DNA of 64,000 nt from an uncultured Chloroflexia bacterium. Its GTDB lineage: Bacteria; Chloroflexota; Anaerolineae; Anaerolineales; Anaerolineaceae. The stretch's first letter is position 1. Every line of letters begins with the position of its first letter. Under the pieces are notes generated by a model. That model saw only the letters and a list, made by a program, of their open reading frames with translations, had not been told where the DNA came from and made no database searches. The stretch spans positions 1,931,825 to 1,995,824 of the forward strand of contig CAVVZR010000008.1 of NCBI GenBank assembly GCA_963752685.1. Direction: 5' to 3'. The translations under genes and the position numbers were made by a program. Of the stretch, positions 30,601-57,700 are shown in pieces.

Positions 30601-30742
30601 TTTTTCCAATCGAGAGATCGCAGGAAGATTATCGATCTCAGAAAGCACCGTCAAAACTCATTTAGGCAATATCTTCTACAAATTAGGGGTTAACAACCGC
30701 ACCCAGGCCGTCACCCAGGCGCGGGAGCTCAACCTGGTTTAG
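27688..30742 (+). CDS. LAL/MalT-type large ATP-binding LuxR-family transcriptional regulator; split by a frameshift near 29480-29530
   Basis: N-terminal STAND/AAA region with Walker A PSGFGKSTLLNEW. A long TPR-like helical middle follows. C-terminal LuxR HTH: REQDVLRMLEAGFSNREIAGRLSISESTVKTHLGNIFYKLGVNNRTQAV. The two ORFs (27688-29595, 29489-30742) overlap in different frames. Confidence 0.75.
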
Positions 30743-35328: not shown

Positions 35329-36785
35329 TCAACCAGCCTGACCCGGATTTACGCGCCGCAGCACCATCGCCTTGATTCGTTTGAACATATTAAACAATAA
35401 TTCCAACTCCACCGGAGTGAGCACTCGTAAAACCCAGGAAATCACGAGATATACCACCAAACCAATCAAAACCAGGACGAAAATATTAATCCCCCGCAAT
35501 AAGAATATGGCGGCTCCCATGATCACAGATGAAATTATCATTCTCAGCAGTGAGGCGCTGCCTAAACCTGCACCAAATTCCTTACGGAAAATCCGGTAAA
35601 ACATTACCGTCCCAACAAATTCGGTAGCCACGGTAACCACCGAGGCGGCCAACAACCCATAGCGGGGAATGAGCAGCAAGTTCAATAAAATATTGAAAAT
35701 TGCCTCGCAGCCATACACCCAGGCAGCCTTTTTCTCGATCTTCATCGCCGTGGTGAAATTACCGCAGATCGAGGTATACATTAATAGTGGTGTATCCCAA
35801 ATCAGGATAGCGAATGCCAGGATGGCCAGATCGAAATCATTGCCGAACAAATAACAAATCAGCTTATCGGACAGAACCATCCCCCCGACCGCAAGGGGCA
35901 GGCCAATTAAGGCGATAAATCTACCGAGCGGAAATACCAGGGTTCAATGGACTTGGGGTCATTGACATGCTCTCGGGCCATGGTGGGCACTAATGCGGTG
36001 ATAAAAGCAGAGGTAAAAATCAATAAACTACGGGTCAACGTATAAGCGGCGTTATACCACCCCACTACGTCTTTTGAAAAATAATTGCCCATGATGAGGG
36101 TATCGAAGCGGAAAGCGAAGGTCAACGATACCTGAATGAAGGCAAACGGCAGCCCAAAGCGCAGCAGGTCAAACCACCGAGCCGGATCCAGATGAAAAGG
36201 CGGCGGTTTCATGTTCTGGCGAATCACCACCATAACACTGATAAAGGTCAGCAGGGGTAAGCTGACCCAGGATGCCACCACCAGCCACAAGAAGCTGGGG
36301 TTGATCAGCAAAAAGATTGTGGCCGCGGCAAAAAAGATCACCTGGCCAAGGACCACAAATATCGATAAGATATCCAGCCGTTCGTAGCCGCCGATTATCC
36401 CTTGCAGCGGGGTTAGAAAGGCCTGGATAAAATAGGTTGAGCTTAAGATTGCGATGGCAATGATCACATCCTGGCTGTAGCCAATATACATCGCGCCCAG
36501 GATGGTGATGACAATGGTGATAATCGCCAATAAAAGGCGTAAAGCAGCCACGTCCCAAAACAAAGACAGAGCCTTCTCCCGGTCACGGGCAATTTCTCGG
36601 CTCATATATTGGGTGATGCCCATATCGCCAATAAAGGAGAAAATCCCCGTCCAGGCCAGGATGATGGAATACTGTCCAAACCCAGTATCGCCTAACTGGC
36701 GGACGATGAAAACGTTGAACAAGAGGCTCAACCCTCGCAACGCGAATTGAGCACCCATGCCAAATAAAGTATTGCGAGCGATCAC
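35329..36785 (-). CDS. Wzx-like polysaccharide flippase (MOP superfamily); split by a frameshift near 35920-35950
   Basis: ORFs 35907-36785 and 35329-35880 are both all-TM. They read as contiguous N- and C-halves of a 12-14-TM Wzx/RfbX protein when a 1-nt shift is allowed. Confidence 0.65.
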
Positions 36786-40001: not shown

Positions 40002-41177
40002 ATGACCAGGATCATTAGAAAGTATCTTTGGTTATTCCTCATATTCGGTCTGGTGAGTTGTAGAGTTCTGCCCCTGGCGCCGAACCCAACGAAGCAACCA
40101 CTTGTCCCCACCAATCAGCCGCCCGCTACCACCAAATCATCAATATCTTCTGCCAGCCCCACCCCTGTATCGACCGTTTCGCAGGTCGCAATTCCAACGC
40201 GGGATATTTCTGCCTTACCCGCATTCGAAAATTTAGCTGATGGCTGGAATGAATTGTATCCAGGCGGAGAAACCGCTTGCGCGCGTGGTGGTACCTACAG
40301 CTTTTCGGTGCGCAAAACAAACAGTTCTAAACTATTGGTTTATTTTGAGGGCGGAGGCAGTTGTTATGACGCAAACACCTGCCGTGTTGGGGGCAATTAT
40401 TTTGACAATTCCATCAATTCGTCATTTGAGGCCGACAATCCCGCCTTAAAATCCCACGGTTTATTTGCTTTAGACAACCCACGCAACCCATTTAGCGATT
40501 ACAACATCGTCTTCATCAACTATTGCACCGGCGATGCCTACCTGGGGGATAAAAGTGTCACCTACCAGAATGGTTTGCGATCATTCGAGGTACAACATAA
40601 GGGATTTATCAATACTCAGACTGCATTCTCCTGGATTTATCAGAATATCCCATCCCCAAATTCGGTATATATGGTCGGCTGCAGCGCCGGGGTAGTGGGT
40701 TCTTTCTTCAACCTGCCATATTTCAAGCAGCATTATCTTCAAACACCCCTTACTATTGTTGGAGATTCGGGCGGCGGCTATCTAGACGGACCAGCTTCGT
40801 ATGCAACGAACATAGGTGCTACCGGTGTACTCCCCTCCTGGCTACCTCAGTACCAAAATTTAATTTCTGGTGATATTCTCCGCTCAAGGTTCATTTTTAC
40901 TATCCCTGCCCAGGCTTATCCCGATATACGTGTCGGATTGGTTAACTCCGAGAATGACGGCGTTCAAGCCGAGATCATCTCGAGGTTTAACTCTAAAATC
41001 ACCCTCAAACAAGTGCTGGAATCAAATTTGACCGACTTGCGTTCGGATGTTCCTGCAATAAATTCTTTTATCGGACCCGGAGACTACCACTGCATCACCA
41101 TGTCAGACCAATTTTATGATTATCAAGCAAACGGCGTCCAGCTTAGTGATTGGATGACCAACCTTGCCAGTCCATAA
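40002..41177 (+). CDS. Secreted lipoprotein esterase of the pectin-acetylesterase/Notum family (PF03283-like)
   Basis: Lipoprotein signal (LIFGLVSC). Family motifs YFEGGGSCYDANTCR (cf. LEGGGWC..C.R) and INYCTGDAYLGD (cf. YCDGxSFxGD), with a downstream GCSAG (GxSxG) nucleophile. Confidence 0.6.
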   Translation: MTRIIRKYLWLFLIFGLVSCRVLPLAPNPTKQPLVPTNQPPATTKSSISSASPTPVSTVSQVAIPTRDISALPAFENLADGWNELYPGGETACARGGTYSFSVRKTNSSKLLVYFEGGGSCYDANTCRVGGNYFDNSINSSFEADNPALKSHGLFALDNPRNPFSDYNIVFINYCTGDAYLGDKSVTYQNGLRSFEVQHKGFINTQTAFSWIYQNIPSPNSVYMVGCSAGVVGSFFNLPYFKQHYLQTPLTIVGDSGGGYLDGPASYATNIGATGVLPSWLPQYQNLISGDILRSRFIFTIPAQAYPDIRVGLVNSENDGVQAEIISRFNSKITLKQVLESNLTDLRSDVPAINSFIGPGDYHCITMSDQFYDYQANGVQLSDWMTNLASP

Positions 41178-41772: not shown

Positions 41773-42564
41773 ATGATCATTACGAAACCAACTAGCAACG
41801 AAAAACCAACCTCCGACTGGTTGGTTTTTCCAAAACCGAACCAACACGCCACCTTCCGGTTGTTCTGTTTCCCTTATGCCGGCGCGGGATCGATGGTATA
41901 TCGCACATGGCCAGATGGTTTACCCCCTCAAGTCGAAGTCGTTTCAATATTGTATCCGGGTAGAGAAAGCCGCCTTCGGGTTACACCTTGTGTAACCATG
42001 CAAACCATGATCCTTGCCCTGGTAGAGGAAATCCTCCCGAAGCTAGATATGCCCTTCGCTTTTTATGGTCACAGCTTAGGCGGTTTGATAGCCTTTGAAC
42101 TCACCCGCGAGCTCCGCCGGCGGCAGTGGTCTCAGCCAACCCGTCTCTTCATTTCCAGCCGGAGAGCTCCCCAACTCCCGGACCCCAATCCACCAATATC
42201 CCACTTGAGTGGAGATGCATTTGCTCAGGCGATCCAAAAGCGCTACAATGGAATTCCCAAGATCATCCAGCAAGACCCCGATTTGATGGATATCTTTCTC
42301 CCTATTCTCCGAGCCGATTTCTCAATCTTTGAGACTTACCAGTATCTCCAAGAGCCGGTTTTAGATATCCCGATCTCTGCTTATTATGGCTTACAAGACC
42401 ATACAATCACTGCACAGGACGTCTCCGCCTGGCAGGATCAAACCCATCACCCGTTATCGTTGCAAGCATTTCCAGGCGATCATTTTTTCATCCAGGCTCA
42501 GCGCCTGGCGCTGCTCGAAACCTTATCGCAAGCATTGGAAAAACAGTTTGCAGGTGGAGGATAA
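41773..42564 (+). CDS. Type II thioesterase (alpha/beta hydrolase, editing TE of PKS/NRPS clusters)
   Basis: FRLFCFPYAGAGSMVYRTW N-terminus, GHSLGG nucleophile elbow (YGHSLGGLIAFELT), ~260 aa. Confidence 0.85.
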   Translation: MIITKPTSNEKPTSDWLVFPKPNQHATFRLFCFPYAGAGSMVYRTWPDGLPPQVEVVSILYPGRESRLRVTPCVTMQTMILALVEEILPKLDMPFAFYGHSLGGLIAFELTRELRRRQWSQPTRLFISSRRAPQLPDPNPPISHLSGDAFAQAIQKRYNGIPKIIQQDPDLMDIFLPILRADFSIFETYQYLQEPVLDIPISAYYGLQDHTITAQDVSAWQDQTHHPLSLQAFPGDHFFIQAQRLALLETLSQALEKQFAGGG

Positions 42565-42571
42565 AGATACG

Positions 42572-43387
42572 ATGGCAGCCATCGTGAGGATACCAGGTGA
42601 AGCCTTGATACCCGGTGCAACTGAAATTCCGTTTGCCTCGAATGTAAGTGAGGTATTCTGGCACGCCTGGATACCCGCAAACCACCTGAGCATTGAACCT
42701 CACCAACTGCATATCTGGCGGGTCGATCTTCATCCATCACCCCAGGCTGCGGGTATCGAACGAGAAATGCTCTCGCCGGCGGAAACCGACCGGATGGAGA
42801 AATTTCAATTTGAACCGGACAGATACCGTTTCATAGTATCTCATTGCGCCCTGCGGATCATTTTGAGCCGTTATCTCGACATAGCGCCACAGCAGGTCCA
42901 ATACCAATACACGGATAAAGGTAAACCGTCACTGGTTCCTGCCACAGGATTATTTTTTAACCTGGCCCACTCTGGGGAACTCGCGCTGGTAGCCGTTGGT
43001 CTGCATTCTCAAATCGGTGTGGATGTGGAGTTCATTCGCATGGTCGATGACCTTGACCAACTCGCCAAATCCTGTTTTTCCCAATCGGAATTTCAGGCAT
43101 TTCAGCAAACGCCAGCCGCACTCAAGCAGCGAGTCTTTTTCAACGGTTGGACCCGTAAAGAAGCGTATATCAAAGCAGTCGGCGATGGGCTCTCAATTCC
43201 GCTGGATCAATTCGATGTTTCCATGCTGCCCGAAGAATCCCCAATGCTTCTATCCATTGCCAGCCATCCCGACGAGGTAAATCAATGGAGCATGCAGGAC
43301 ATTCCTGTGGGTGATGATTACGCCGCGTGCATTGCAATAAAAACACGCCCGGTCAATGTTTTTTATCTGTCCTTTTTCGAATATTGA
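42572..43387 (+). CDS. Sfp-type 4'-phosphopantetheinyl transferase
   Basis: GGAGGA RBS before ATG 42572. PPTase motifs GVDVEFI and WTRKEAYIKAVG (W/F-x-x-KEA). Confidence 0.8.
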   Translation: MAAIVRIPGEALIPGATEIPFASNVSEVFWHAWIPANHLSIEPHQLHIWRVDLHPSPQAAGIEREMLSPAETDRMEKFQFEPDRYRFIVSHCALRIILSRYLDIAPQQVQYQYTDKGKPSLVPATGLFFNLAHSGELALVAVGLHSQIGVDVEFIRMVDDLDQLAKSCFSQSEFQAFQQTPAALKQRVFFNGWTRKEAYIKAVGDGLSIPLDQFDVSMLPEESPMLLSIASHPDEVNQWSMQDIPVGDDYAACIAIKTRPVNVFYLSFFEY

Positions 43388-46300
43388 AACAACCATGTCA
43401 GATATAAATCCCCCCATCCCAAGTTTATCTCAACCGCCCGATCCTACGGAACCGATCGCCATCGTAGGCATTGGATGTAGGTTCCCGGGCGGTGTGAATT
43501 CACCAGAATCCTTCTGGGATCTATTGAAGAACGAAGTGGATGCGATAACCGAGATCCCGGCCAGCCGCATGAACATCAAAGCCTTGTATGATCCAAGGCC
43601 TGCAACCCCCGGGCGGATTATGACCCATTGGGGTGGATTTCTGGATGAAATCGACCAGTTTGATGCCTCCTTCTTTGGTATGTCGCCGCGCGAGGCAGAT
43701 CGCTTAGATCCACAGCAGCGCCTGATCCTTGAAGTTGCCTGGGAAGCCATGGAAGATGCCGGGGAGCCGATCGGGACGCCAACATGTCTCAATGGTGGGG
43801 TTTTCATTGGTTGCTGGTTAAATGATTTCGAGGGAAGGTTATTTAACGATCCGGACCTAATTGATTTCTACATGACCACCGGCAGCGGTCGTTATTCCAT
43901 CGTTGGCAGGCTTTCCTATTTCCTGGGTATGCAAGGGCCAAGCATCAACGTAGATACGGCTTGTTCCTCCTCCCTGGTAGCCATCCATCTGGCATGCCAG
44001 AGCCTCCACAATCGAGAATGCTCATTAGCCTTAGCCGGCGGCACCAACGTAATTTTGCAGCCCAGTATTTCCATCGCCTATTCGCAATCCCGCATGATGG
44101 CGCCTGACGGACGATGTAAATTCGGCGATGCACATGGCGATGGTTATGTAAGGAGCGAGGGCGCAGCGTTGGTTGTGCTCAAACGTCTCTCAGATGCAAT
44201 CGCCGATAAAAACCCAATTTATGCAGTGATTCGTGGTAGTGCGGTCAATAATGATGGGCGCAGCAGCGGGTTTTTAACCACGCCTGGAGGCGCAGGGCAG
44301 GAGGATATGCTTCGTAAAGCTTATCAGAATGCAAATGTATCCCCAGGCATGGTCCAGTATATCGAAGCTCACGGTACTGGCACACGGGCAGGCGACCCGG
44401 TAGAAATCCAGGCATTGGGTGCGGTATTAAAACAGGACCGCCCCATGGGCCAATTTTGTAAAGTTGGCTCGGTGAAGACAAATATTGGGCATACAGAAGG
44501 CGCTGCGGGTGTAGCTGGCTTGATAAAAGTGGTATTGAGCATGAAAAACCACTATATCCCAGCCAGTTTACATTTCCAGGAACCCAATCCCGCAATCCCT
44601 TGGGATGATCTTCCGGTTCGAATCCAATCCAAAGGTGAAGCCTGGCCCGACCATGACGGACCTGCCCTTGCAGGGGTCAGCGCCTTCGGCATCGCGGGGA
44701 CCAACGCGCATATCGTCCTCCAGGAAGCTCCGATCCTCAACTCAACTTCCGACCAGAATTTTACTAGACCGATATCCGACACTCAATCCAGCGATGATCG
44801 CATGTATGTTCTGCCGATTTCTGCTCGCAGCCCGTCTGCGCTCCACGATGTTGTCCAAAGGATGAAAAACTTTATCGAAAATGGTGACGACCATTCTCTT
44901 AACGACCTCGCCTATACCACTGGCACAAGGCGCACCCATAACGATTATCGAACTTCGTTTATTGCCCAAACCATTCAAAATCTTGATGAGCAGCTCTCTC
45001 TCTTTTTAGAAGACTGGCAAGCAGAAGGTTTTCCCCTGGCAGAACCAACGAACCGCAAGATATTGTTTGTTTTCCCTGGACAGGGTTCGCAGTGGGCCGG
45101 GATGGGGCTTCAATTGATGGAAAGAGAGCCGGTCTTCCGAGCGGTTCTCGAACGCTGCAGTCAGGCTATCGAACCATTAACCGGCTGGTCGCTCATCGAA
45201 ATTTTACGCTCTTCGCAAGTCAAAGAGCGGTTGGAACACATCGACATTATTCAACCCGCGTTATTTGCCATGCAAGTAGCTCTTGCCGAACAATGGCGCG
45301 CCTGGGGGATTGAACCTGCTGCAGTTGCTGGACATAGCATGGGCGAGATTGCCGCCGCCTACATTGCAGGCGCCATTTCCCTGGAGGATGCCGCCAGGGT
45401 TATCTGCAAGCGCAGCCAATTAATGAGAACGGTCAGCGGCAAGGGAGCCATGATTTCGGTCGACCTTTCGTTTGACGATTCGCGAGCTGCGATCCAAGGA
45501 TACGAAGATAAAATCTCAATCGCAGTGAGTAACAGCCCCCGGTCCACTGTTTTATCAGGGGATCCTGATGCTATTGATGAAGTCTCTGCCAACCTAAAAA
45601 ATAAAAACATACTATTCCGCCAGGTGAAGGTAGATGTGGCCGCACACAGTCCACAGATGGAAGCGCTGCGGCCTTTGCTCGAAAAGTCCCTGGATGGTCT
45701 GCAAACCCAACCCACCGCTATACCGATTTTTTCAACCGTATCAGCTAAGCTAGAAGATGGCGCGAGTTTTGATATTGCATATTGGGGGCGCAACCTCCGC
45801 CAACCGGTTTTGTTCTCTTCAGTGCTGAAACTGGCTTTAGATCAAGGCTTTGATACGGTTATCGAAATTAGCCCACACCCGGTTCTTCTTTCCGCTATTG
45901 AGCAAGGATTTGGTATTTTTAAGCCCGACAGCGAAGTGCGATTTGCTGCACTCCCATCCGCCCGGCGTAATGAAAACGAACAGGTTGTGCTGCTACAGTC
46001 CCTCGGTAAGCTTTTTGAGCTTGGGCACCCCATCCAGTGGTCCCGCATTTATCCACAGGAAGGGAATTTCGTAAAACTGCCATCCTATCCATGGCAGCGT
46101 GAACATTTCTGGCTCAAGGAAGCTGAAATCGACGCCGGCGCCGTTTCCCACACCTCCTCCGGATTACTTGGCACACATTTCGAAACATCCAGCCAACCAG
46201 ACACCCACTTTTGGCAGACCATTCTATCCCTTGAGACAGTTCCGTATCTGAAAGATCACCGGGTAGGTGAGACCATTCTGATGCCGGCAGCAGCCTTTGT

Positions 46301-47024
46301 GGAACTGGCGTTGGAAGCGGCTGCAGCCCTCGAAAAGCCCCTGGTGGTTAAGGACTTTGAGCTTCGCGAAGCACGCTCACTTCAGGAAGGCATGTCGTAC
46401 ATCCTACAATTTGTGATGTATTCAGATCACAACTTTGAAATTATCAGTCGTCAGGATGGAATGAGCGAATGGACTCGCCATGCTACCGGTAACTTGAGTG
46501 CCGAAGAAGATCTGACGAAGCCTGCCGACCGGATTGGGTCTGACAACCTGCTTTTCACGGCGGAAAACCACACTGGCGCTGACCACGTCAATGCTATGCG
46601 TCGCCGCGATTTGGACTACGGGCCTTCCTTCCAGGCAGTTGATTCCTACCGCCACATCGACAATCAGGTTGTTGGGCTAATACATTTGCCCGACAACCTG
46701 ACAATGGGAGAGCATATCATCCACCCAACAGTTTTGGATGCTTGCTATCAACTGCTGGTTGGGTCCCTAGACGCTTCCTCCGCGGCCGGCGACGCATTCT
46801 TGCCAATCAAAATAAACAGCTTGAAGGTATTTGCTCGCCCACGCAGCGACTCTGCCCTGACTGCTCACGTGACTCGACGATCGTTCGCCTCGGATGATCT
46901 GTTGATTGGAGACATCCGTCTGGAAAACGAGAATGGTGACCTGATCCTTTTCACCAATGGGCTGGAATTACAGCGTTTCCACAACAACAATAAACACGCT
47001 GACGATTTGTTCTACGCGATTTAA
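43356..47024 (+). CDS. Type I PKS module 1, first part: KS-AT-DH (probable start Met 43395). Terminated by a single in-frame TAA at 47022
   Basis: KS motifs [59 protein letters not shown] motifs GHSMGEIAAAYIAG and VDVAAHSPQM. DH motif LKDHRVGETILMPAAAF (HxxxGxxxxP). Confidence 0.85.
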   Translation: MFFICPFSNIETTMSDINPPIPSLSQPPDPTEPIAIVGIGCRFPGGVNSPESFWDLLKNEVDAITEIPASRMNIKALYDPRPATPGRIMTHWGGFLDEIDQFDASFFGMSPREADRLDPQQRLILEVAWEAMEDAGEPIGTPTCLNGGVFIGCWLNDFEGRLFNDPDLIDFYMTTGSGRYSIVGRLSYFLGMQGPSINVDTACSSSLVAIHLACQSLHNRECSLALAGGTNVILQPSISIAYSQSRMMAPDGRCKFGDAHGDGYVRSEGAALVVLKRLSDAIADKNPIYAVIRGSAVNNDGRSSGFLTTPGGAGQEDMLRKAYQNANVSPGMVQYIEAHGTGTRAGDPVEIQALGAVLKQDRPMGQFCKVGSVKTNIGHTEGAAGVAGLIKVVLSMKNHYIPASLHFQEPNPAIPWDDLPVRIQSKGEAWPDHDGPALAGVSAFGIAGTNAHIVLQEAPILNSTSDQNFTRPISDTQSSDDRMYVLPISARSPSALHDVVQRMKNFIENGDDHSLNDLAYTTGTRRTHNDYRTSFIAQTIQNLDEQLSLFLEDWQAEGFPLAEPTNRKILFVFPGQGSQWAGMGLQLMEREPVFRAVLERCSQAIEPLTGWSLIEILRSSQVKERLEHIDIIQPALFAMQVALAEQWRAWGIEPAAVAGHSMGEIAAAYIAGAISLEDAARVICKRSQLMRTVSGKGAMISVDLSFDDSRAAIQGYEDKISIAVSNSPRSTVLSGDPDAIDEVSANLKNKNILFRQVKVDVAAHSPQMEALRPLLEKSLDGLQTQPTAIPIFSTVSAKLEDGASFDIAYWGRNLRQPVLFSSVLKLALDQGFDTVIEISPHPVLLSAIEQGFGIFKPDSEVRFAALPSARRNENEQVVLLQSLGKLFELGHPIQWSRIYPQEGNFVKLPSYPWQREHFWLKEAEIDAGAVSHTSSGLLGTHFETSSQPDTHFWQTILSLETVPYLKDHRVGETILMPAAAFVELALEAAAALEKPLVVKDFELREARSLQEGMSYILQFVMYSDHNFEIISRQDGMSEWTRHATGNLSAEEDLTKPADRIGSDNLLFTAENHTGADHVNAMRRRDLDYGPSFQAVDSYRHIDNQVVGLIHLPDNLTMGEHIIHPTVLDACYQLLVGSLDASSAAGDAFLPIKINSLKVFARPRSDSALTAHVTRRSFASDDLLIGDIRLENENGDLILFTNGLELQRFHNNNKHADDLFYAI

Positions 47025-48437
47025 TGGGAAGCTGCTCCCGAATTAATTCCTTCTTCTTCAATGGAAGGTCATTGGCTGATCGCAAGTGATCAGGAACATG
47101 CCGCAGGTCAGCTTCGCGCAAGCCTGGAGACCCAGCAAGCGGTTTGCCGTATCCCGGCAAACGCATTTGATGGCAGTAAGATTGATCAGATCAACGCAAA
47201 AACCCAACATTTGGATTTGAGCGAACCATTAAGAGGCGTCATCTTCCTTGCCGTAGAATCCGCCGATCCACCGCCTATGGCTGCGGATCAACAATCGCTG
47301 AGACTTCTGGAACTGGTTCAAAAATTAGCCCAAGTAGATTGGAAAGAACCACCCCGGCTGTGGATTGTCACCCTGGGTGCTCAAGCTGTACTCCCAGGAG
47401 AGGCTTGTTCACCAGCATTGACCTCATTGTGGGGGCAAGCTGCCACAATTGCTCATGAATTCCCGGAATGGCAAACCTCACGAATCGATCTCGATTCGCT
47501 TGAGGCAATCCCACTCCTTTGGCAAGAACTGGCAGCCAGGCAAACCGATTCCGTCGCATTGCGAGGTGGGAAGCGTTTTATCCCTCGCCTTGTTCACCCA
47601 AATCTGCTCCAGGATGGTCTATCAAGCACAACACTGGCTGCTCCGGCCGGGGATCGCCCTTTCCAGGTAGAGGTCCCCCACCCCGGTTTATTAGACTCGC
47701 TTGAGCTCCGCGCTTGTTCGGCGCCTCAACCGGCGCCCGGCCAGGTTATCATTGATGTACATTCATCCGGGATGAACTTTATCGACGTGATGAAAGCCAT
47801 GGGCATTTATCCGGGCGCCAATCCCCTCGAGCCGGTCGCGCTGGGTCTGGAATGCTCCGGGACCATCCTGGCGATAGGCGACAATCCCAATCCATCAACG
47901 CATCAATTTGCTGTTGGGCAGGAAGTGCTCGCCTTTGCACCCCACACTTTTAGTAAATTGGTTACCGCTGACATTGATCTTGTAGCTCCTATACCGCCAT
48001 CTCTGAGTTTCGATCAGGCTGCCACAGTTCCGGTGGTATACCTGACTGCTTACTACGCCTTAATCCACCTGGGACGCATGCACCGCGGCGAACGAGTGCT
48101 CATCCATTCTGCAGCCGGTGGGGTGGGGTTGGCTGCTGTACAACTGGCACAGCATGTTGGCGCCGAAATTTTTGCGACTGCCGGCAGTGACGAAAAACGC
48201 GCCTATCTGCGCTCCTTGGGTATCCAACATATCATGGACTCGCGTTCGCTCGATTTCGCCGATCAAATCATGGCCAGCACAAATGGCCGAGGCGTAGATC
48301 TGGTATTGAATTCATTAACCGGCGAAGCCCTTACCAAAGGTCTCGAAATTTTAGCGCCATACGGACGCTTCCTCGAAATAGGCAAACGGGACATTTACCA
48401 GAATACCCGCATCGGGTTGCTCCCATTCCAGAATTAA
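47025..48437 (+). CDS. PKS module 1, enoyl reductase (MDR-type ER) domain; same reading frame as the KS-AT-DH part
   Basis: The WEAAPE linker follows the TAA directly in frame. NADPH motif [20 protein letters not shown]. The domain's C-terminus continues in another frame after ~48430. Confidence 0.8.
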   Translation, partial: WEAAPELIPSSSMEGHWLIASDQEHAAGQLRASLETQQAVCRIPANAFDGSKIDQINAKTQHLDLSEPLRGVIFLAVESADPPPMAADQQSLRLLELVQKLAQVDWKEPPRLWIVTLGAQAVLPGEACSPALTSLWGQAATIAHEFPEWQTSRIDLDSLEAIPLLWQELAARQTDSVALRGGKRFIPRLVHPNLLQDGLSSTTLAAPAGDRPFQVEVPHPGLLDSLELRACSAPQPAPGQVIIDVHSSGMNFIDVMKAMGIYPGANPLEPVALGLECSGTILAIGDNPNPSTHQFAVGQEVLAFAPHTFSKLVTADIDLVAPIPPSLSFDQAATVPVVYLTAYYALIHLGRMHRGERVLIHSAAGGVGLAAVQLAQHVGAEIFATAGSDEKRAYLRSLGIQHIMDSRSLDFADQIMASTNGRGVDLVLNSLTGEALTKGLEILAPYGRFLEIGKRDIYQNTRIGLLPFQN

Positions 48438-49644
48438 CCTGTCCTATTTTGCCATCGATCTCGACCGAATTGCCCGCGAACGCCCCGAATTTCTAGGCGA
48501 GATGTTGGCAGAAGTCATGGCCCTGCTTGAAAAAGGTGAAATTTCGCCATTACCCATTACCGCATATCCGGTCATCCAGACTAATGATGCCATGCACCAT
48601 ATGTCAGAGCCGGACCATATTGGTAAGGTTGTGCTCAACATGACTGATCCGAATGTGCCGGTGCTGCCTTCATCCCAGGAGACAGCCATGATCAAATCTG
48701 ATGCCACATACCTGATCACAGGCGGGCTCGGTGGGTTGGGACTGGCGGTTGCCAGCCAGCTGGCAGATCTGGGTGCGCGCCATTTGGCTCTGGTAAGCCG
48801 CAGCGGCGAAGAACGATTATCCCCGGAAGCCAAAACCTCCCTGGAAGGCTTGCGGGGTAAAGGCGTAAATCTCGCTATTTTGGCTGCAGATATCGCCGAT
48901 ACGGATCAAACCAGGGAGGTGCTTGCTCACATCCGCGAACACCTGCCCGCTCTGCGGGGGATCATCCATGCGGCTGGGGTGCTCGATGATGGCACCCTAT
49001 CCCAATTAACCCCCGAACGCATGCGAAATGTTTTTGCGCCCAAAATAGCCGGCGCATGGAACCTTCACTCGCTCACCGAGGACTTGACGCTCGACTTTTT
49101 TGTACTCTTCTCCTCAGTCACCTCACCTTTCGGCTCGCCGGGCCAGGGCAATTATGCTGCCGCTAACGCATTCATGGATGGCCTTGCTCATTATCGCCAA
49201 TTCTTGGGTCTTCCGGCACTCAGCATCGATTGGGGGCCGTGGAGCCAAATCGGACTGGCTGCCCAGCGACTCTCAAGGCGGTTTACTAGGTTTGGGCGGA
49301 TTTATACCGATACCCCCGAGGAAGGTCTGGACATATTCATCCGCTTGTTGGAGATTTCAGCGTCGCAAATCATTGCTACAGGCTTCAACGCGGGAGAATG
49401 GATCCAATCTCACCCGGCCGCATCCCGCTCGACCCTGTTTTACAATTTTGAAGACAGTGCTCCCGGCGCCGAAAGCACATCGACCGAGTCTGTCCGTGCC
49501 AACCTGCTGGCGGCCCTTCCGGGACGGCCAAGACACACCATATTGGAAACTTACGTTAAAGAACAGGTCGCACAAGTCCTTCGCCTGCCTCCGCTCGCGT
49601 CGATTTGCACAAACCGCTGCGCACCCTGGGATTGGACTCGCTGA
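48430..49644 (+). CDS. PKS module 1, ER C-terminus plus ketoreductase (KR); offset from the ER by one frameshift
   Basis: NLSYFAIDLDRIARERPEFLGEMLAEV completes the ER. KR Rossmann motif TYLITGGLGGLGLAVA, LDD motif HAAGVLDDG and catalytic SSVTSPFGSPGQGNYAAAN. Confidence 0.8.
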   Translation, partial: RINLSYFAIDLDRIARERPEFLGEMLAEVMALLEKGEISPLPITAYPVIQTNDAMHHMSEPDHIGKVVLNMTDPNVPVLPSSQETAMIKSDATYLITGGLGGLGLAVASQLADLGARHLALVSRSGEERLSPEAKTSLEGLRGKGVNLAILAADIADTDQTREVLAHIREHLPALRGIIHAAGVLDDGTLSQLTPERMRNVFAPKIAGAWNLHSLTEDLTLDFFVLFSSVTSPFGSPGQGNYAAANAFMDGLAHYRQFLGLPALSIDWGPWSQIGLAAQRLSRRFTRFGRIYTDTPEEGLDIFIRLLEISASQIIATGFNAGEWIQSHPAASRSTLFYNFEDSAPGAESTSTESVRANLLAALPGRPRHTILETYVKEQVAQVLRLPPLASICTNRCAPWDWTR

Positions 49645-49922
49645 TGTCTATCGAATTCCGCAACCGCCTGGAAAGCGGTCTGGAGATAGCGCTTTCCGCG
49701 ACCCTGGTATGGAACTATCCATCGATCAACGATCTGGTCCCCCACCTCGCTGAAAAAATGGGTATTACATTGGATGGTGGCGCTGTTCCCGAGGCGGAGG
49801 TCGTGAAACCTGCCACGGGCTCCCAGGAACCGGCCAACTCAGAGGACCTCAATAACCTCAGCGACGCGGAGCTGGCGGCGATGTTGGATAGTGAATTGGA
49901 CAAAATTGATGATTTGCTCTAA
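49590..49922 (+). CDS. PKS module 1, ACP domain and C-terminal docking helix; offset by one frameshift
   Basis: The LGLDSLMSIEFRNRL phosphopantetheine-attachment motif is present. C-terminal LSDAELAAMLDSELDKIDDLL matches the C-termini of modules 2 and 3. Confidence 0.8.
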   Translation, partial: SARVDLHKPLRTLGLDSLMSIEFRNRLESGLEIALSATLVWNYPSINDLVPHLAEKMGITLDGGAVPEAEVVKPATGSQEPANSEDLNNLSDAELAAMLDSELDKIDDLL

Positions 49923-50065
49923 AGGCCAATTCTTGTTGGAATCCCCTCTGGCTTTGCAGCCTATAATGAAACTAGGCATGCCTCCAACAGGTAAATCTCT
50001 CAACATCGAGCAATTGTTTGGTTGGTTTCATCCCTGCTGTTCGATGACCCAGGAATAAGGTAACT

Positions 50066-53000
50066 ATGACCACCGAAAACGACAACACCACCCAGTTAAA
50101 ACGGGCCTTGCAATCCCTCAAAGAACTTCGACTTCGCCTGGAAAGTGTGGAACGCGCGCGCCGAGAACCTATCGCCGTGATCGGCATGGCTTGCCGCTTC
50201 CCGGGTGGGGCCGATTCTCCAGAGGCCTATTGGGACGTGCTGAAAAATCGGGTCGATGGCATTGTGCCCATCGCCAATTGACCGTTGGGATGCGGCTGCG
50301 CTTTTCGATGCGGACCCCGGGTATCTGGCAAAGTAGCCACTCGCTGGGGTGGATTCTTACCGCAGGTAGACCGATTTGATGCCGCTTTCTTTGGCATCTC
50401 TCCTCGCGAGGCCATCCATATGGATCCGCAGCAGCGTCTGCTCCTGGAAGTGGCCTGGGAAGCATCGAAGATGCCGGTTTGACCTGTTGAAAAGTTGGCC
50501 GGCAGCCGCACTGGTGTTTTTGTCGGTGTTCACAGCCACAGCAGCGATTACTACTTGATGCAGGCCCTAGACCCCGAGGACATCGGACATCTACTCCGGC
50601 ACTGGCACCTCCCATAGCGTAGTCAGCGGGCGAATGTCTTACTGGTTTGATCTGCATGGCCCCAACATGGCGCTGGACACAGCTTGTTTCTTCGTTGGCT
50701 GCAGTCCATCTGGCTGTCCAAAGCCTCCGCAATGGCGAAAGCAATCTGGCGCTGGCAGGGGGCGTGAATGTCATCCTCACCCCGCATTTCACTATGATGA
50801 CCTCAAAAATGCGCATGTTGTCGTCCGATGGACGCTGCAAAGCATTCGATTCGCGTGCGGATGGAATTGGGCGCGGCGAAGGCAGCGGTGTTGTAGTGCT
50901 CAAAGAGATTATCGGATGCCTTGAGAGACGGCGATCACATCCTTGCATTGATCCGCGGTTCAGCTATCAACCAGGATGGCCACTCAAATGGCCTGACCGC
51001 CCCCAACGGCCTCTCCCAACAAACCGTCATCCGCGATGCATTGAAAATGCGGGGGTAAAACCTGAGCAGGTCAGCTATGTGGAGACCCATGGCACAGGCA
51101 CCCCTTTAGGTGACCCGATCGAAGTCGAAGCGCTCAGCGAAGTTTACGGCTCCCCCCATCCTCACGCGTTCCCTGCGTCTTGGGATCCTCCAAAACCAAT
51201 CTGGGCCATCTCGAAGGCGCTGCCGGGATAGCCGGTTTTATGAAAGCCGTGCTTTGCCTTACAAAACGGCACCATCCCAGCCAATTTGCATTTCAACAGA
51301 CTCAATCCCCATATTTCTCTGGCTGGCACTCGCCTGCAAATCGCAACCGAAGAGCGCCTCTGGGAAACGGGCAACGAGCCGCGTCTGGCGGGGATCAGCG
51401 CATTTGGTTGGTCAGGCACCAATGTCCATGTCGTCCTCGAGGAATTTAAACAAGGGGATCGGGAACCCATAGTTCAGCCATCTCATTCCCGGTCGCTCGT
51501 ACCAACTATTTTGCCCATCTCCGCTCGCTCCGCTGGAGCGCTCAAAGAGTTAGCAACGGCATATCAATTGCGATTGTCTCTACCCAGAAATCTCATTGGC
51601 AGATCTTTGCCACACCGCAGCGCTCCATCGCAGCCATCACGAACACCGTATGGCGATTGTCGGTTATACGACAAGTGATATGCTCGAAGCCCTGACGGCC
51701 TTCGAGCACGGTGAGAGCCACCCACGTCTGCAAATGGGTCTGGCGGCCGAAAACCGGAAGCCTGGGATCGTCTTTGTATATTCCGGGGTGGGCGGCCATT
51801 GGCCTGGGATGGGAAGCCAACTGCTGGCCCAGGACCCAATCTTCAGCCACGTGATCGAACAATGTGATGCAGCCTTCCGCCCTTATGTCAATTGGAGTCT
51901 GATCGAACAGCTAAAGGCTGGAAAAGAAAATTCACGTTTCGACGAAATTGATGTGGTGCAGCCCTGTTCGTTTGCGATCCAAGCTGCACTCACTGCAAGT
52001 TTGCAAGCACGGGGGATCATTCCCGACGTTGTCATTGGCCATAGTATGGGCGAAGTGGTCGCGGCATATGTTTCCGGGGCCCTTTCTCTGGAAGATGCCT
52101 CTGCAGTCATTTGCAACCGCAGCCGGCTGATGCGCCGCGTCAGCGGTAAAGGCGCGATGGCCGCTATCGGCCTGACCCGCGAAAAAGCTGACGCGTTGCT
52201 TTCGAATTATCGAACCCGTTTATCCATAGCTGTGAGCAACAGTCCCTCATCCACCGTTCTGTCTGGAGATCCTGAAGCTTTAGAAGAAGTGCTAATAGGC
52301 TTGCGCGCCCAAAACATATTTACGCGCGCTGTCAACGTGGATGTGGCTGCTCACAGCCCCCAAATGGACCCTTTGCGCCCCGAATTAGTAAGTACTCTTT
52401 CCAATATCCACCCCAAAGCCACCACGATCCCGCTCTATTCGACAGTGCTTGCCGGCCCAGTCGACGGATCATCTCTGAACGCAGATTACTGGGGGAAGAA
52501 TTTACGCCAACCTGTGCTATTTTCTTCTACGATCGAGCAAGTAATTGCTGAAGGTTACGATATTTTCATCGAATGTGGACCCCACCCGCTGCTTTTGCCG
52601 GCCATTTCCCAGGCCGTGCGCCCTGAAAACTCTCAAAACAATCCATTGACCCTCCTTCCTACGATGCGCCGGGCCGAGAACGAGCAGACCATCCTGCAAT
52701 CTGTTGCTGCGGGGCTGTACACAGCCGGGGTCTCCGTAGATTGGAAAAAGATTCTCCCCGAACCGGGCGATTTCGTCCACTTGCCGGCCTATCCCTGGCA
52801 GCGTAAGCGCTATTGGATCCAGGTGAAACAAAATGCCTTCGATCCTCTGGCCAATTGGGTCTACCAGATAGAGTGGAAACCGCAAGATAACAATTCCGTG
52901 CCCATCCCCCAATCCCTGGGTACATGGCTGGTCTTCTGTGAAACCAGCGATCCATCTACCCGGGTTTGCTCTTGGCAAACCGGATCAGCGCTTTCGGCGG

Positions 53001-54750
53001 GAATTCTGTTTGTGTCTACAAGGGAAACGGATACGACCAAGAATCATCTGATCGTTTTCGCGTGGACCCACACAAGCCTGAGCATTTCAAAAAGTTGCTG
53101 GGGCAGTGTGTGGCAATTCTCCGGCCTTGCAGGGAGTTGCTTATTCGTGGGGCCTGCAGGCACCCAAAGCCGACCAAATCGATCTGCAACATTAAGAAGC
53201 CCAATCTGTTTTACTGAGGGGGGCGCTCCATCTGGTTCAGTCCCTGGCGGAAACCAATGGCAGCCAGGCGGTAACCCGCGCCTATGGTTAATCACCAGGC
53301 AGGCCCAGCCCGTTGCAGGCGACCGCCCCCTGGCTTGGCGCAGTCCACCTTGTGGGGCCTGGGGCGAGTGGTCGCCTTTGAACATCCCGATTTATGGGGC
53401 GGCCTGATTGATGTCGACGACATGCCCCCGATAAACTCCTCGCCGATCTCAGTGGGGAACCCGATCAGCAAATCGGGTTCCGCCGGGGAAGGCGCTATGG
53501 GCTCATCTGTTGCGCCAGACCATCTCCTCCCTCGACCTCCACCTGACCTTACTGCCCGATGCCAGCTATCTGGTAACCGGGGGGCTGGGCGGCCTGGGGT
53601 TAAAAGTGGCCAATTGGTTGGCAAGCCACGGCGCCAAACACATCGCCCTGATGGGGCGCAGCAGCGGCTCAGAGGCCGCACGCCAGGCGGTTCAGGCGCT
53701 GAGATCCGCGGCGTCCAGGTGCCATGGTCCAGGGAGATGCCAGTCAACCGGAGGATCTCCACCGAATTCTGGCTGAAATTTCGCAGGCAATGCCTCCGCT
53801 GCATGGCGTGATCCATGCCGCCGGCGTTGTGGAAGACGCACTTTTGGTGCGCCAAAATTGGGCCGGCTATGAACAGGTATTCGCCTCAAAAGTAGCCGGT
53901 GCCTGGAACCTGCACGAACTCACCCAGGAGTTGCCGCTTGATTTCTTCGTGCTGTTTTCTTCGGCGGCATCGCTCCTAGGCACACCCGGTCAGGCAAACT
54001 ATGCCGCCGCCAACGCTTTTATGGATGCGCTGTCCTTTGAACGCCATGCTGCCGGCCTGCCAGCCCTGTTGATCAATTGGGGCGCATGGGATGAAGTGGG
54101 GATGGCCGCCGGCAGGACAGCAAGCCGCCTGGCCCGTTTGGGCATTGAAAGTTTCTCACCGGAAAAGGGGCTGGCTGGCTTGGGACGGCTGATCCACCAG
54201 CGGCGCCGCAGCCCTTGTGCCTCGATGAAATGGGAGAAATTCACGTCCAAGGCCCGGGCGGCTACACCTGCTTCTTTCTTCTCCGGCTTGACGCGGAACG
54301 ATGCACCGGCAAAACCTCCGCCTGATCAACGAGGAGAACTCAAAGCATCCTCCAGCTGCTCGAATCTGCCCATCCCGCGCGCGCGCAGATTTGCTGGGCA
54401 GCCATATCCATAAAATCGTGGTCAAGGTACTTTCCTATGACAGCAGCCAGACATTGGCTCACGACCAGGGTTTCTTCCAACTCGGGATGGATTTCGTTAA
54501 TGGCATGGACCTTAAAGAAAGCCTTGCAAAAGAGCCTGGCCGGCTCTTTACGCACTACCTTGGCGTTTGATTTCCCCAGTATCAACCTGCTCACCCAGAT
54601 ATTTCTAACCGAATTGTTCCCCCAGCAGACACGTCGCCGAAGAATCGCCGCCCCCCCCTTCGATCACGACGAAGCATTGGACGAACTACCCACGAGGAAT
54701 TGAAATCGATGCTCGATATTGAAATGCGAAGTTTGGAAAACGACCTATAA
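50066..54750 (+). pseudogene. Type I PKS module 2 (N-docking-KS-AT-psiKR/KR-ACP-C-docking), fragmented by at least 10 frameshifts. This is either a genuine pseudogene or a low-quality sequence region
   Basis: Domains are readable only by hopping frames. [23 protein letters not shown]...[45 protein letters not shown] and GHSMGEVVAAYVSG are present. There is no DH between the AT and psiKR (LAQSTLWGLGRVVAFEHPDLWGGLIDVDD). KR motifs YLVTGGLGGLGLKVA and FFVLFSSAASLLGTPGQANYAAAN. ACP remnant, and the docking tail [18 protein letters not shown]. Confidence 0.7.
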
Positions 54751-54755
54751 AACTT

Positions 54756-57700
54756 ATGCCTGATAAAACCACACCCACAAACGACCTAGACCAATTGAAA
54801 CGTGCTTTGAGCGCGTTGAAAAAAGCGCACGCTCGCATCACCGCCCTTGAGCAAGCGCGTTCAGAACCGATTGCCATTGTTGGAATGGGCTGCCGCCTGC
54901 CAGGTAAAGCCAACTCGCCGCAGCATTCTGGCAGCTGCTGCGCGAGGGCCGCAGCGGAATGACCCAGGCGCCTGCAGAGCGTTGGGATACAACTGCTTTT
55001 CAGGCATCCTCCCCAGATGAGCCGGGCAAAATGCAGTCATCTTTGGGTGGTTTTATCAACAACGTCGACCAGTTCGACCCCCATTTTTTTGGCATTTCGC
55101 CCCGCGAAGCCAATGCAATGGATCCCCAGCAGCGCCTGACGCTCGAAGTGGTCTGGGAAGCGCTCGAAGATGCCGGTATTGTCCCTGCCGGCCTGGCCGG
55201 CAGCTCCACCGGTGTTTTTATTGGGATCGGGATCAATGATTATGGTCGCTTGCAGATCCCCGCGCAGGCTGGCTGACCCCAGCATGATCGACAATTACTT
55301 CCTCCAGGGAAATGCCTTTTGCATTACCCCCAATCGCGTCTCCTACGCGCTCGACCTTCAAGGCCCCAGCATGGCGATCGACACCGCCTGTTCAGCATCC
55401 CTGGTCGCCATTCATACTGCCTGTGCAAGCCTTCACAACGGGGATAGCTCTCTGGCCCTTGTCGGCGGCTCGAACGTGATGCTCGCTCCCGATAAATCGA
55501 TCGGTCTGGGAAAATTTTTCGCACCAGATGGCCATTGCAAAGCCTTCGATTCTCGAGCCAATGGTTATACCCGTGGCGAAGGCTGCATTATCTTGGTACT
55601 GAAAAGGCTGTCCGATGCCGATCACGTCCCATGACCGCATTTATGCGCTGATCCGGGGCAGCGCCATAAACCAAGATGGCTTCAGCAGCGGTTTGACCGT
55701 ACCCAACGGGGTAGCCCAGGAAGCCATGCTGGGCACAGCCCTAAAAAATGCCGGTCTCGCAGCCAGGCGATATGGATTATATCGAAGCTCATGGTACCGG
55801 CACTTCTCTGGGCGACCCAATTGAAGCCAATGCCCTGGGGCAGTTTTTGCCAGCGGGCATAAAGCCGGCGCAGGAACTGCTCATTGGTTCGGTAAAAACC
55901 AATATTGGTCATCTGGAAGCCGGGCAGGCATCGCGGGCTTGTTCAAGATTGTCCTGGCCCTGTACCACCGGGAAATTCCACCCAGTTTAAATTATATTGA
56001 ACCCAATCCCATGATTGACTTTGCTACCCTGCGCCTAAGGTGGTCACCCAATTAACGCCCTGGCCGCAGAGCGACCACCGCCCCGCGCAGGGGTCAGTTC
56101 CTTTGGATTTGGCGGGGCCAATGCACATGTGATTGTTGAAGCCTTTCCCGATGAACTGTACCTCCGCGTCAACCATGCCCTGCAACGGACCGCAAGCCAT
56201 CTACTCACCCTATCGGCCAAGACCCCCAAGCTCTCACCCAATCCGCCCAAAATTTGGCAACCTTCTTGCGCGCCAACCCTGGGCTTGCCCCGGAGGATGT
56301 TTGTTACACCGCCAACCGGCGCCGTTCGCATTTCACTCACCGTCTGGCGTCGTCTCCCTGACCGGCCCGGATTTGCCAAATCTGGACGCATTCGCGGATG
56401 GCAAACCCGCTCCAATGGATCAGCGCTCAGGTTCAGCGCGCCAAGCAAAGTCGCTTTTTTATTCACCGGTCAGGGCTCGCAATATGTAGGCATGGGTACC
56501 CCGCTTTTCAGACACAGCCCGTTTTCCGTGCCATTATGGATCGCTGCGCCGCCATCTTTCAGCAGGAGACGGGCGAATCGCTGTTCGCGATTCTCTATCC
56601 GGCTGAAACCACTCTGCACCCTCCAGGGTACGAGGAACATTAAAAATCAACCATACTACTTACACCCAACCAGCGCTTTTTGCCATCGAATATGCCCTGG
56701 CTGAGCTATGGCGCTCCTGGGGGGTTGAACCCGCGTGGTGATGGGGCATAGCATTGGTGAATATGTGGCAGCATGTGTTGCCGGGGTCATGAGCCTGGAA
56801 GATGGCATGAATCTGGTTACGGCCCGCGGCCGGCTGATGGGCGCGCTGCCCGAGGGGGGGTGATGGCAGCTGTCTTCGCCCCTCTAGAACGCGTCCAGCA
56901 AGAACTAGCGGCCCTTGGTTTCGATCGCGGCCATCAATGGCCCTGATAGTATCGTCATCTCCGGTGCTCCGCTGCCGTGCAAGAAATATTGGACCGGTTC
57001 AACGAGCAGGGCGTCCAAACCCGTAAATTGGTCGTCTCTCACGCCTTCCATTCCCCGCTCATGGATCCAATACTGGATGAATTTGAGCAGGTGGCGGCCA
57101 CCTGCCCGTTTCACCCCCCAGAATTCCTCTGATCTCCAATATCACCGGTCGTCCATTTGCATCGGGCGAAATTCCCGATGCGGCTTACTGGCGCACACGT
57201 CCGCTCAGCAGTCAATTTTGCCGCCGGAATGGGCTGCACTGCATGACTTCGGGATTTCTACATCCTGGAGACAGCCTCACCCGGCCCTGATAGCCTCGGG
57301 AAGCGCTGTATTCCGGATGAGCGTGATGATCCTACCGGAGGGTGTAAAAACCTGTGGCTGCCTTCTCTGCGTCAAGCGCAAATCGATGACCTGCAAATGC
57401 AAAAAAGCCTGGCAGCTTTCTACTGCCTTGGTCAGGAAATAGATTGGGCCGCGGTAGAGAGTCAGCGCCCGGGCAAACTCACCACCTTGCCCACCTATCC
57501 CTTCCAGCACGAGCGGTTCTGGTTCCAGACCTCTACTGAGGGGCGTTCACCAAAATCTTCCCGCAGCCACTCCGCTCCCTCCGAACGGCCGCTTCTCGGC
57601 AGCCGCCTGCGCTCTCCCCTGATCAAAGACATTGTCTTTGAGACGCACATCGATGCCCAATCGCTCGGTTATTTGTGGGACCACCGCGCTTTTGGCACGG

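Follow-up and report, generated by a model that had tools for sequence, protein, structure and literature searches.

Does an in-frame TAA in the first module of an Anaerolineae type I PKS mark the native end of a gene, a split or inactivated module, or an error in the assembled sequence? The codon lies at 47022-47024 on the + strand of the window, i.e. the whole 64-kb stretch of DNA that was analysed, and is in frame with the KS-AT-DH ORF of module 1. The codons around it read GAC GAT TTG TTC TAC GCG ATT TAA TGG GAA GCT (DDLFYAI*WEAAPELIPSSSMEGHW), and the reading frame past the TAA stays open until 48437, with the earliest in-frame ATG at 47061. The stop is read straight from the letters and is no statistical pattern; its meaning rests on homology. 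An earlier note on this DNA had described a TAA between the DH and the ER with the frame continuing into the ER, and the sequence together with the Pfam domains bears this out. We conclude that the TAA is not a designed gene boundary but a point lesion of an ordinary type, either a nonsense mutation of recent date or, possibly, an error in base calling. The reading that we favor, with about even confidence, is that module 1 of a cis-AT type I PKS of an uncultured Anaerolineae (Chloroflexota) bacterium has recently undergone a genuine nonsense substitution. Premature stops in PKS genes are a familiar type of lesion.

The gene cluster and the position of the stop codon

Two orthologous clusters of uncultured bacteria, L007 (JGI 3300076801, Ga0645780_03086) and L001 (ENA ERZ25039495 contig_32728), have in common with the window the gene order AsnB-like, pectinacetylesterase (PAE), thioesterase (TE), (phosphopantetheinyl transferase, PPTase) and the PKS order KS-AT-DH-ER-KR-ACP, KS-AT-KR-ACP, KS-AT-DH-ER-KR...; no PPTase gene is called in L001. 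The features of the window are as follows.

40002..41177, + strand: PAE-family gene, the first of the cluster (Pfam PF03283; syntenic in L001 and L007; 52-54% identity)
41773..42564, + strand: type II TE gene (Pfam PF00975; 59% identity to the L007 TE)
42671..43387, + strand: 4'-phosphopantetheinyl transferase gene (Pfam PF01648, PF22624; 42% identity to the L007 PPTase)
43356..47024, + strand: module 1 upstream ORF, 1222 aa, ending at the TAA (Pfam KS, AT, DH)
47022..47024, + strand: in-frame TAA stop; the aligned codon is Gln CAG in L001 and L007, and mycocerosic acid synthase has Gly
47025..47060, + strand: part of the DH-to-pseudoKR linker that separates the stop from the next ATG, 12 sense codons, WEAAPELIPSSS
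47061..48437, + strand: downstream ORF, 458 aa, pseudoKR subdomain and N-terminal two thirds of the ER (Pfam ADH_N, ADH_zinc_N)
48436..49922, + strand: rest of module 1, i.e. ER C-terminus, KR and ACP (Pfam KR; tblastn and frameshift-aware alignment)
50066..54747, + strand: module 2, KS-AT-KR-ACP, with ~25 frameshifts of one base each and a single in-frame TAA at 53193
54747..60053, + strand: module 3, KS-AT-DH-ER..., free of in-frame stops but with ~33 frameshifts of one base each

The PPTase ORF is listed from 42386, and its homology begins at ~42671. In the upstream ORF of module 1, Pfam places the KS at nucleotides 43449-44576 (aa 32-407 of 1222), the AT at 45066-46013 (aa 571-886) and the DH at 46164-46991 (aa 937-1212). 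The Pfam domain order and the catalytic motifs of module 1 fit a fully reducing cis-AT KS-AT-DH-pseudoKR-ER-KR-ACP module, and TACSSS, HGTGT, NIGHT, GHSMGE, DHRV...P, LDACYQ and AAGGVG are all legible in its translation. Upstream of the stop, the catalytic motifs are intact (KS Cys/His/His, AT GHSMG, DH His/Asp), and this ORF aligns to the L001 KS-AT-DH at 75% identity without a frameshift or stop. The downstream ORF closes at a +1 frameshift at ~48435; further frameshifts are present at ~49270, 49304 and 49594, and the native stop of the module is at 49920-49922.

The TAA is located in the DH-to-pseudoKR linker, one codon 5' of an invariant Trp and, by placement on known structures, ~18-20 residues past the end of crystallised DH constructs; the DH fold is complete before it. 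ATG 47061 is placed 5' of the first pseudoKR strand (GHWLIASD), and the codons at 47025-47060 are collinear with the orthologues, with no insertion there. Across the ~5 kb from 43404 to 48434, the TAA is the sole in-frame stop and the sole frame-breaking lesion, with zero indels. As the earlier note had suggested, it is a substitution-type lesion, in contrast to the neighbouring indels.

Orthologues and the ancestral form of module 1

In L007, module 1 is a single 2164-aa ORF within the same PAE-TE-PPTase-PKS synteny, and it differs from that of the window in being uninterrupted, with Gln at the stop site. A single tblastn HSP of this intact orthologue spans the stop, covering 1677 aa at 52% identity from 43446 to 48434 of the window, and ~22 further PKS homologues are uninterrupted across the site. 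Module 1 of the window is 52-55% identical to that of L007 and 75%/60% identical to that of L001. Gln is found at the site in L001 too, yet the same module of L001 has a TAA of its own 50 codons upstream and inside the DH (L001 13436-13438), on a contig that is otherwise frameshift-free. Mycocerosic acid synthase and MAS-like fully reducing PKSs (PDB 9d2z, 9d2y, 5bp4) have the same DH-pseudoKR-ER-KR organisation; the MAS alignment is unbroken from the DH via the linker to the pseudoKR (E = 2e-31), and where the window has TAA, the conserved Trp of MAS is preceded by a codon for Gly. Alignment of the linker to homologous PKSs, as the earlier note had proposed, finds the homologues continuous across the site and Gln in the orthologues. 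Judged by this sequence comparison, the ancestral form is shown to have been one continuous KS-AT-DH-pseudoKR-ER-KR-ACP polypeptide, and the TAA is not a native gene end.

Searches for a closer relative gave weak matches in the plasmid collection (66-76% identity over short stretches) and a best-segment identity of at most 46% in scans of GTDB genomes and JGI metagenomes; one locus, L004, when realigned is 31% identical over the stop region. Exact-protein look-ups in the protein collection for a near-identical genome or for another assembly of this species gave singletons only.

The orthologues also bear on which codon was replaced. The earlier note had proposed Glu (GAA) and a G-to-T change by comparison with module 3, and the module 3 string that it quoted, LFADWLYRMEWHKQ, is indeed present at ~58.6 kb, where the DH/pseudoKR junction reads ...LYRMEWHKQ. 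However, module 3 is a paralogue, while both true orthologues carry CAG, and we therefore rejected Glu in favor of Gln. TAA is one step from CAA and two steps from the CAG of the orthologues, and the Gln codons of the module 1 gene are divided evenly between CAA and CAG (41:42). By this codon comparison, the replaced residue was most likely Gln, changed via CAA>TAA (C>T). C>T is the commonest spontaneous change.

A native gene boundary, or programmed recoding by read-through or reassignment of TAA, is extremely unlikely. In-frame TAA codons in each of two related clusters and a frame preserved past the stop speak for such an arrangement, but the boundary is lacking in L007 and the stop in L001 is at a non-homologous position. 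Against recoding, TAA terminates 12 of the 19 confident genes of the window and is the commonest terminator there. In E. coli, the TAA-T and TAA-G contexts are strong terminators. No stimulatory RNA structure was found at the stop (z = -0.45), no promoter or terminator at the junction, and no tRNA, suppressors included, in the window (64 kb of a 2.1-Mb contig). Similarly, the 36 nt before ATG 47061 have no Shine-Dalgarno sequence (the upstream sequence ccttcttcttca lacks GGAG, GAGG and AGGA), while ~11 of 17 other genes of the window have one. Thus, the ribosome-binding site for reinitiation at Met 47061 that the earlier note had suggested looking for is absent upstream of this codon, and we discarded signals for reinitiation or read-through because Shine-Dalgarno, promoter, terminator, RNA structure and tRNA are all lacking.

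It is unlikely, if less so, that the stop is real but tolerated, with KS-AT-DH and pseudoKR-ER-KR-ACP working as two non-covalently associating polypeptides of a module split de novo, the second half being made by reinitiation at ATG 47061. In myxalamid synthesis, MxaB1/MxaB2 are a split module of a cis-AT system. In favor of a split, the stop is exactly at a domain boundary, ATG 47061 is just before the first pseudoKR strand, and an intact ORF of ~950 aa follows if the downstream indels are artefacts; moreover, L001 is likewise annotated as two ORFs (1145 and 998 aa) with a break within 50 codons of that in the window, and neither lineage shows relaxed constraint. On the other hand, the boundary is not conserved, the invariant linker Trp would be missing from both products, and alignment of the junction to the continuous orthologues reveals no docking-size extension at either new terminus in addition to the missing Shine-Dalgarno sequence. 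The stop in L001, moreover, would cost its DH three beta-strands. A native split module, first suggested by the two ORFs of L001, was dropped because the L001 stop is intra-DH, L001 has Gln where the window has its stop, and L007 is continuous. Split modules are known from trans-AT PKSs, DH/KR junctions included (PMC9113145), and as would be the case in the window, such a module is distributed over two polypeptides at the DH/reductive-domain junction; however, the known cases have conserved gene boundaries, docking elements of ~25 aa and proper translation starts, none of which is present here.

Nonsense mutation or base-calling error

In the model of a recent nonsense mutation, the stop would most simply have arisen from the Gln codon CAA by a C>T transition to TAA. 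The linker that it interrupts connects the DH fold to the pseudoKR/ER/KR part. Translation would end at the TAA to give a 1222-aa KS-AT-DH protein without a carrier protein, and module 1, and hence the assembly line, would be blocked or badly impaired. The stop is probably young because neither side of it shows relaxed constraint. The bases around it, unlike those at 48.4-60 kb, look well supported because 43404-48434 has neither indels nor another stop, and because L001 has its own TAA on an otherwise frameshift-free contig, the cluster appears to acquire stops in nature. The earlier note had expected truncation to leave a KS-AT-DH protein together with an ER-KR-ACP fragment; the former, lacking an ACP, stands, whereas the latter is broken by four frameshifts in the assembly.

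We consider it possible, but doubtful, that the true base at 47022 is C (CAA, Gln) and that module 1 is intact. The error would then be either a residual long-read error or a C/T miscall caused by a methylated adenine in GANTC (GATTC read as GATTT). The contig is noisy, with ~62 one-base indels at 48.4-60 kb and frameshifts in the flippase and AsnB genes, and sister assemblies (L008, L009) are heavily fragmented. Methylation-linked nanopore miscalls of purine for purine and pyrimidine for pyrimidine are known, including C/T next to a methylated A with RA/TY as the minimal motif (PMC11610573), and a T/C ambiguity in the TY context at the stop would fit this class of errors. Restoring C at 47022 gives GATTC, a GANTC site, and none of the 16 NNnNN palindromes is more strongly depleted in the window than GANTC (O/E 0.67). 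Moreover, the stops of the window and of L001 share the heptamer GATTTAA, which is an awkward match if both are real mutations that arose independently. By contrast, the indel-free 5 kb around the stop argue against an error, and the chance that random error would produce a stop at this place is ~1-3% by an estimate that assumes a baseline of ~0.1-0.3 indels/kb and 3.4% stop-making substitutions. No systematic conversion of GANTC to GANTT or AANTC was detected: at GANT_T sites, C is present in both orthologues in 1 of 56 cases (the stop itself), and the corresponding count at A_ANTC sites is 2 of 50, with 3-6% at control sites, i.e. without an excess of lineage-specific changes. Intact GATTCAA occurs at three places in the window and at three in L001, and GATTTAA is not over-represented (5 observed, 8.7 expected). 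Systematic GANTC-linked C>T miscalls were rejected on the missing enrichment and the GATTCAA sites intact elsewhere, and a methylation-linked error at the single site 47022 may have occurred.

Downstream frameshifts and the state of the cluster

Frameshift-aware alignment of modules 1-3 identified ~62 one-base frameshifts at 48.4-60 kb versus 1-2 nonsense codons. These indels are patchy (39 deletion-type, 23 insertion-type), leave clean blocks of 1.4 kb and ignore gene boundaries; isolated frameshifts are also present in the flippase and AsnB genes. The frameshift sites show no homopolymer enrichment over background, and homopolymer-driven indels were dropped on this ground. Similarly, collapse of near-identical module repeats was rejected as the source of the noise because inter-module DNA identity is merely 63-81%.

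For relative-rate counts, amino-acid changes unique to the window were compared with those unique to L001, using L007 as the outgroup. The counts for window versus L001 are 49 vs 67 upstream of the stop, 36 vs 40 just downstream, 122 vs 103 in module 2 and 43 vs 37 in module 3, i.e. the window lineage has no excess of amino-acid change over L001. After frame correction, the modules are 72-80% identical to those of L001 (71.9% for module 2), as compared with 75% for the intact part.

It is very unlikely that the TAA is one among many lesions of an old, decaying PKS pseudogene cluster, even though modules 1-3 hold ~62 frameshifts and 2 internal stops in the present sequence. At ~58 indels/10 kb, decay would be expected to bring several hundred substitutions and ~8-25 nonsense codons (an estimate from usual indel:substitution ratios, with 3.4% of random substitutions making a stop), but one is seen. 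Equally, balanced relative-rate counts, frame-corrected similarity equal to that of the intact part, and patchy indels with clean 1.4-kb blocks argue against decay, and we rejected old pseudogene decay on the indel:nonsense ratio together with the relative-rate tests. Because there is no excess of amino-acid change and nonsense codons are few, we read the dense frameshifts at 48.4-60 kb as most likely long-read consensus noise, separate from the stop. The "other lesions" of the earlier note are for the same reasons (~62 indels versus 1-2 nonsense codons, no acceleration) probably not biological. Long-read errors are known to produce frameshifts and premature stops (PMC12007338; proovframe preprint 10.1101/2021.08.23.457338), and the many one-base indels that break genes in the contig resemble these errors; the TAA, by contrast, is a substitution in a clean 5-kb stretch. 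In the neighbouring ENA assemblies L008 and L009, PKS and non-PKS genes alike are fragmented, and their contigs have Flye-style names as here, the sequencing platform being deduced from contig naming alone.

The present assembly is no ground for classing the cluster as an array of old pseudogenes, since its dozens of frameshifts look technical; of all the lesions, the substitution-type stop alone is a candidate for real inactivation. Should the T be genuine, the assembly line as encoded would probably not work in this strain; should it be an error, an intact cluster similar to the complete one of L007 is likely. For the mining of clusters in long-read MAGs, in-frame stops and frameshifts need to be checked against orthologues and reads first. 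The scientific weight of the finding itself is small.

The window and L001 represent two related Anaerolineae lineages. In each, the same module has an in-frame TAA no more than 50 codons from the C-terminus of its DH, in the heptamer GATTTAA, and apart from this, selection appears to maintain both clusters. We speculate, as a quite unlikely reading of this coincidence, that docking-free splitting of a fully reducing cis-AT module into KS-AT-DH and pseudoKR-ER-KR-ACP halves is tolerated or even favored, or that a GANTC-linked mutational or restriction-avoidance hotspot generates stops at this place.

Setting of the stop codon in module 1

The in-frame TAA in module 1 (KS-AT-DH-pseudoKR-ER-KR-ACP) lies at 47022-47024, where the window DNA, read directly, is ...GCG ATT TAA TGG GAA... 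(47016-47030) and the protein across the stop is ...DDLFYAI-stop-WEAAPELIPSSSMEGHW. Ten residues separate it from the end of the Pfam DH match. Past the stop, the same reading frame encodes the ER and then the KR (Pfam), and the first in-frame ATG is at 47061. An earlier note had described DDLFYAI-TAA with the ER in the continuing frame, as is confirmed here; the module 3 string that it used for comparison is present at about 58.6 kb.

Features of the PKS region
43356-47024, + strand: KS-AT-DH ORF, 1222 aa, complete DH (Pfam)
upstream of module 1: pectinacetylesterase-family gene, thioesterase (TE), PPTase (Pfam)
farther upstream, beyond these three: AsnB-like, flippase and GT4 genes
61339-64000: fourth PKS module (KS-AT...), beginning at ~61.3 kb and continuing past the window end, with at least two frame changes (frames 1/2/1, tblastn)

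Two orthologous clusters were recovered for comparison: L007 (JGI 3300076801, Ga0645780_03086) and the closest relative, L001 (ENA ERZ25039495 contig_32728; 75% identity in KS-AT-DH). In the window (42671-43387) and in L007, a PPTase gene separates the TE from the first PKS gene; none is called in L001 (compare 9835-10001), although the clusters are otherwise syntenic. The best named relatives of the window's ammonium transporter are from Anaerolineae/Anaerolineales (77-83% identity), so the source is probably a Chloroflexota MAG; the proteins belong to a contig of 2.14 Mb.

Interruption of an ancestral polypeptide

L007 has the same gene order as the window and its module 1 is one 2164-aa ORF, which matches the window in a single HSP spanning the stop. 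In L001, module 1 is annotated as two ORFs and has an in-frame TAA of its own (13436-13438), which precedes the window's site by 50 codons and falls within the DH fold (..RSDAVI-stop-AFITRR..); at the window's stop site L001 reads ..LYVFQWENTPEL, and its contig is otherwise frameshift-free. Homologues are continuous across the site (13 in the alignment, about 22 by BLAST); the residue there varies, and the Trp after it is invariant. Because L007 is uninterrupted, the L001 stop lies elsewhere and the homologues are continuous, sequence comparison indicates that module 1 was ancestrally one polypeptide, which the stop breaks in the DH-to-pseudoKR linker, and that the stop is not a conserved split-module junction. 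By the same token, a native gene boundary is an unlikely origin of the stop. The alignment with mycocerosic acid synthase structures is unbroken at the site, which lies ~18-20 residues past the point where crystallised stand-alone DH constructs end. No docking element is inserted at the junction relative to the aligned homologues; split-module junctions with docking elements are typical of trans-AT, not cis-AT, systems (PMC9113145).

The earlier note derived a Glu (GAA) ancestor from the paralogous module 3; in both orthologues, however, the codon is CAG (Gln). Since the module 1 gene uses the two Gln codons CAA and CAG in equal measure (41:42), the simplest path to the stop would be CAA>TAA, a C>T transition.

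Reinitiation at Met 47061, for which the earlier note proposed looking for a ribosome-binding site, finds no Shine-Dalgarno upstream of that ATG, while GAGG/AGGA-type motifs precede most window genes. Scans for promoters and terminators, like RNA folding, gave nothing exceeding chance, TAA is the normal terminator in 12 of 19 confident genes, and no tRNA genes were found within the 64-kb window. Stop-codon reassignment and programmed read-through are therefore unsupported, and recoding is an unlikely explanation of the stop.

Mutation or miscall

The best single reading, which we hold with middling confidence, is a recent genuine nonsense mutation, in which C>T in a Gln codon CAA would have cut module 1 short just past the DH. 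That the module was split de novo and the split is tolerated is improbable. A consensus error at the TAA is a serious rival, though a less likely one than mutation. Random residual error is unlikely because the stop lies within a 5-kb stretch holding zero indels (chance roughly 1-3%, an estimate). Systematic error is less easily set aside. In nanopore data, C/T and A/G are confused next to methylated adenines in an RA/TY pattern (PMC11610573). Putting back the C at the stop gives GATTC, a GANTC site, and the heptamer GATTTAA is common to the window and L001 stops. GANTC is also the most depleted of 16 NNnNN palindromes compared in the window (O/E 0.67, Markov estimate; 118 sites against 259 expected from shuffles), a possible sign that the lineage has a restriction-modification or methylation system specific to GANTC. 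Against such an error, 13 kb of aligned PKS sequence contained no lineage-specific GANTC>GANTT/AANTC changes beyond the stop itself (1/56 and 2/50, versus 3-6% at control sites), and GATTCAA is intact at other places. No second assembly of the same species was found for comparison. Mutation or miscall alike, an in-frame stop in a PKS gene belongs to a known class of features, and this case serves mainly as a warning against drawing biological conclusions from a noisy long-read contig.

Frameshifts in the PKS modules and elsewhere

Lesions by frameshift-aware protein-to-DNA alignment
Module 1: 4 frameshifts (48435, 49270, 49304, 49594); 1 internal stop (TAA at 47022)
Module 2: 25 frameshifts; 1 internal stop
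Module 3: 33 frameshifts; 0 internal stops

Amino-acid changes unique to the window / unique to L001 (outgroup L007)
KS-AT-DH: 49 / 67
Segment just past the stop: 36 / 40
Rest of module 1: 55 / 48
Module 2: 122 / 103
Module 3: 43 / 37

The roughly 62 frameshifts (48435-59728) are all single-base, 39 deletion-type and 23 insertion-type, and are patchily distributed: the blocks 51583-52961 and 57293-58780 are clean, and there is no concentration in homopolymers. Real decay with so many indels would be expected to come with substitutions in the hundreds and some 8-25 nonsense codons (an estimate using a 3.4% stop-creating fraction of substitutions). However, the unique changes are balanced, with a slight window excess in noisy patches only (177 vs 138; clean patches, 128 vs 157), and the frame-corrected modules retain 72-80% identity to L001. 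Old decay of the cluster is therefore unlikely. Because nonsense codons are nearly absent and amino-acid divergence is not raised, the indels, which the earlier note called lesions, are most likely long-read consensus noise. Inter-module repeats are ruled out as its source by an inter-module DNA identity of only 63-81%. The module 2 TAA (53193-53195; ..DLQH-stop-EAQS.. vs ..DLATLQSSQS.. in L001) is of doubtful reality because it lies inside a frameshift-dense patch.

Frameshift-type errors in long-read assemblies are well documented (PMC12007338; 10.1101/2021.08.23.457338). Contigs of neighbouring ENA assemblies with the same naming style have likewise fragmented PKS and non-PKS genes: their more distant PKS loci, L008 (ERZ25039552 contig_40778) and L009 (ERZ25039496 contig_51), consist of many short ORFs and the flanking non-PKS genes (FtsX, epimerase, Bac_transf) are also fragmented, a sign that indel noise affects lower-coverage contigs across the project.

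Fragmented and possibly fragmented genes elsewhere in the window
35329-35880 and 35907-36785, - strand: flippase (Polysacc_synt), isolated one-base frameshifts at 35924 and 36841 vs the intact L001 orthologue
38460, - strand: isolated one-base frameshift breaking the N-terminus of the AsnB-like (asparagine-synthase-like) gene vs the intact L001 orthologue
27688-30742: MalT/LuxR-family regulator, apparently split into two overlapping ORFs (27688-29595, 29489-30742)
12423-18136: PAS domains and histidine-kinase core on three abutting or overlapping ORFs (12423-15134, 15127-16659, 16535-18136)

The two regulator ORFs correspond to the N- and C-terminal portions of the MalT model, which makes a further frameshift near 29.5 kb probable. 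The ORFs at 12423-18136 may represent either one or two large frameshifted sensor kinases or separate genes.
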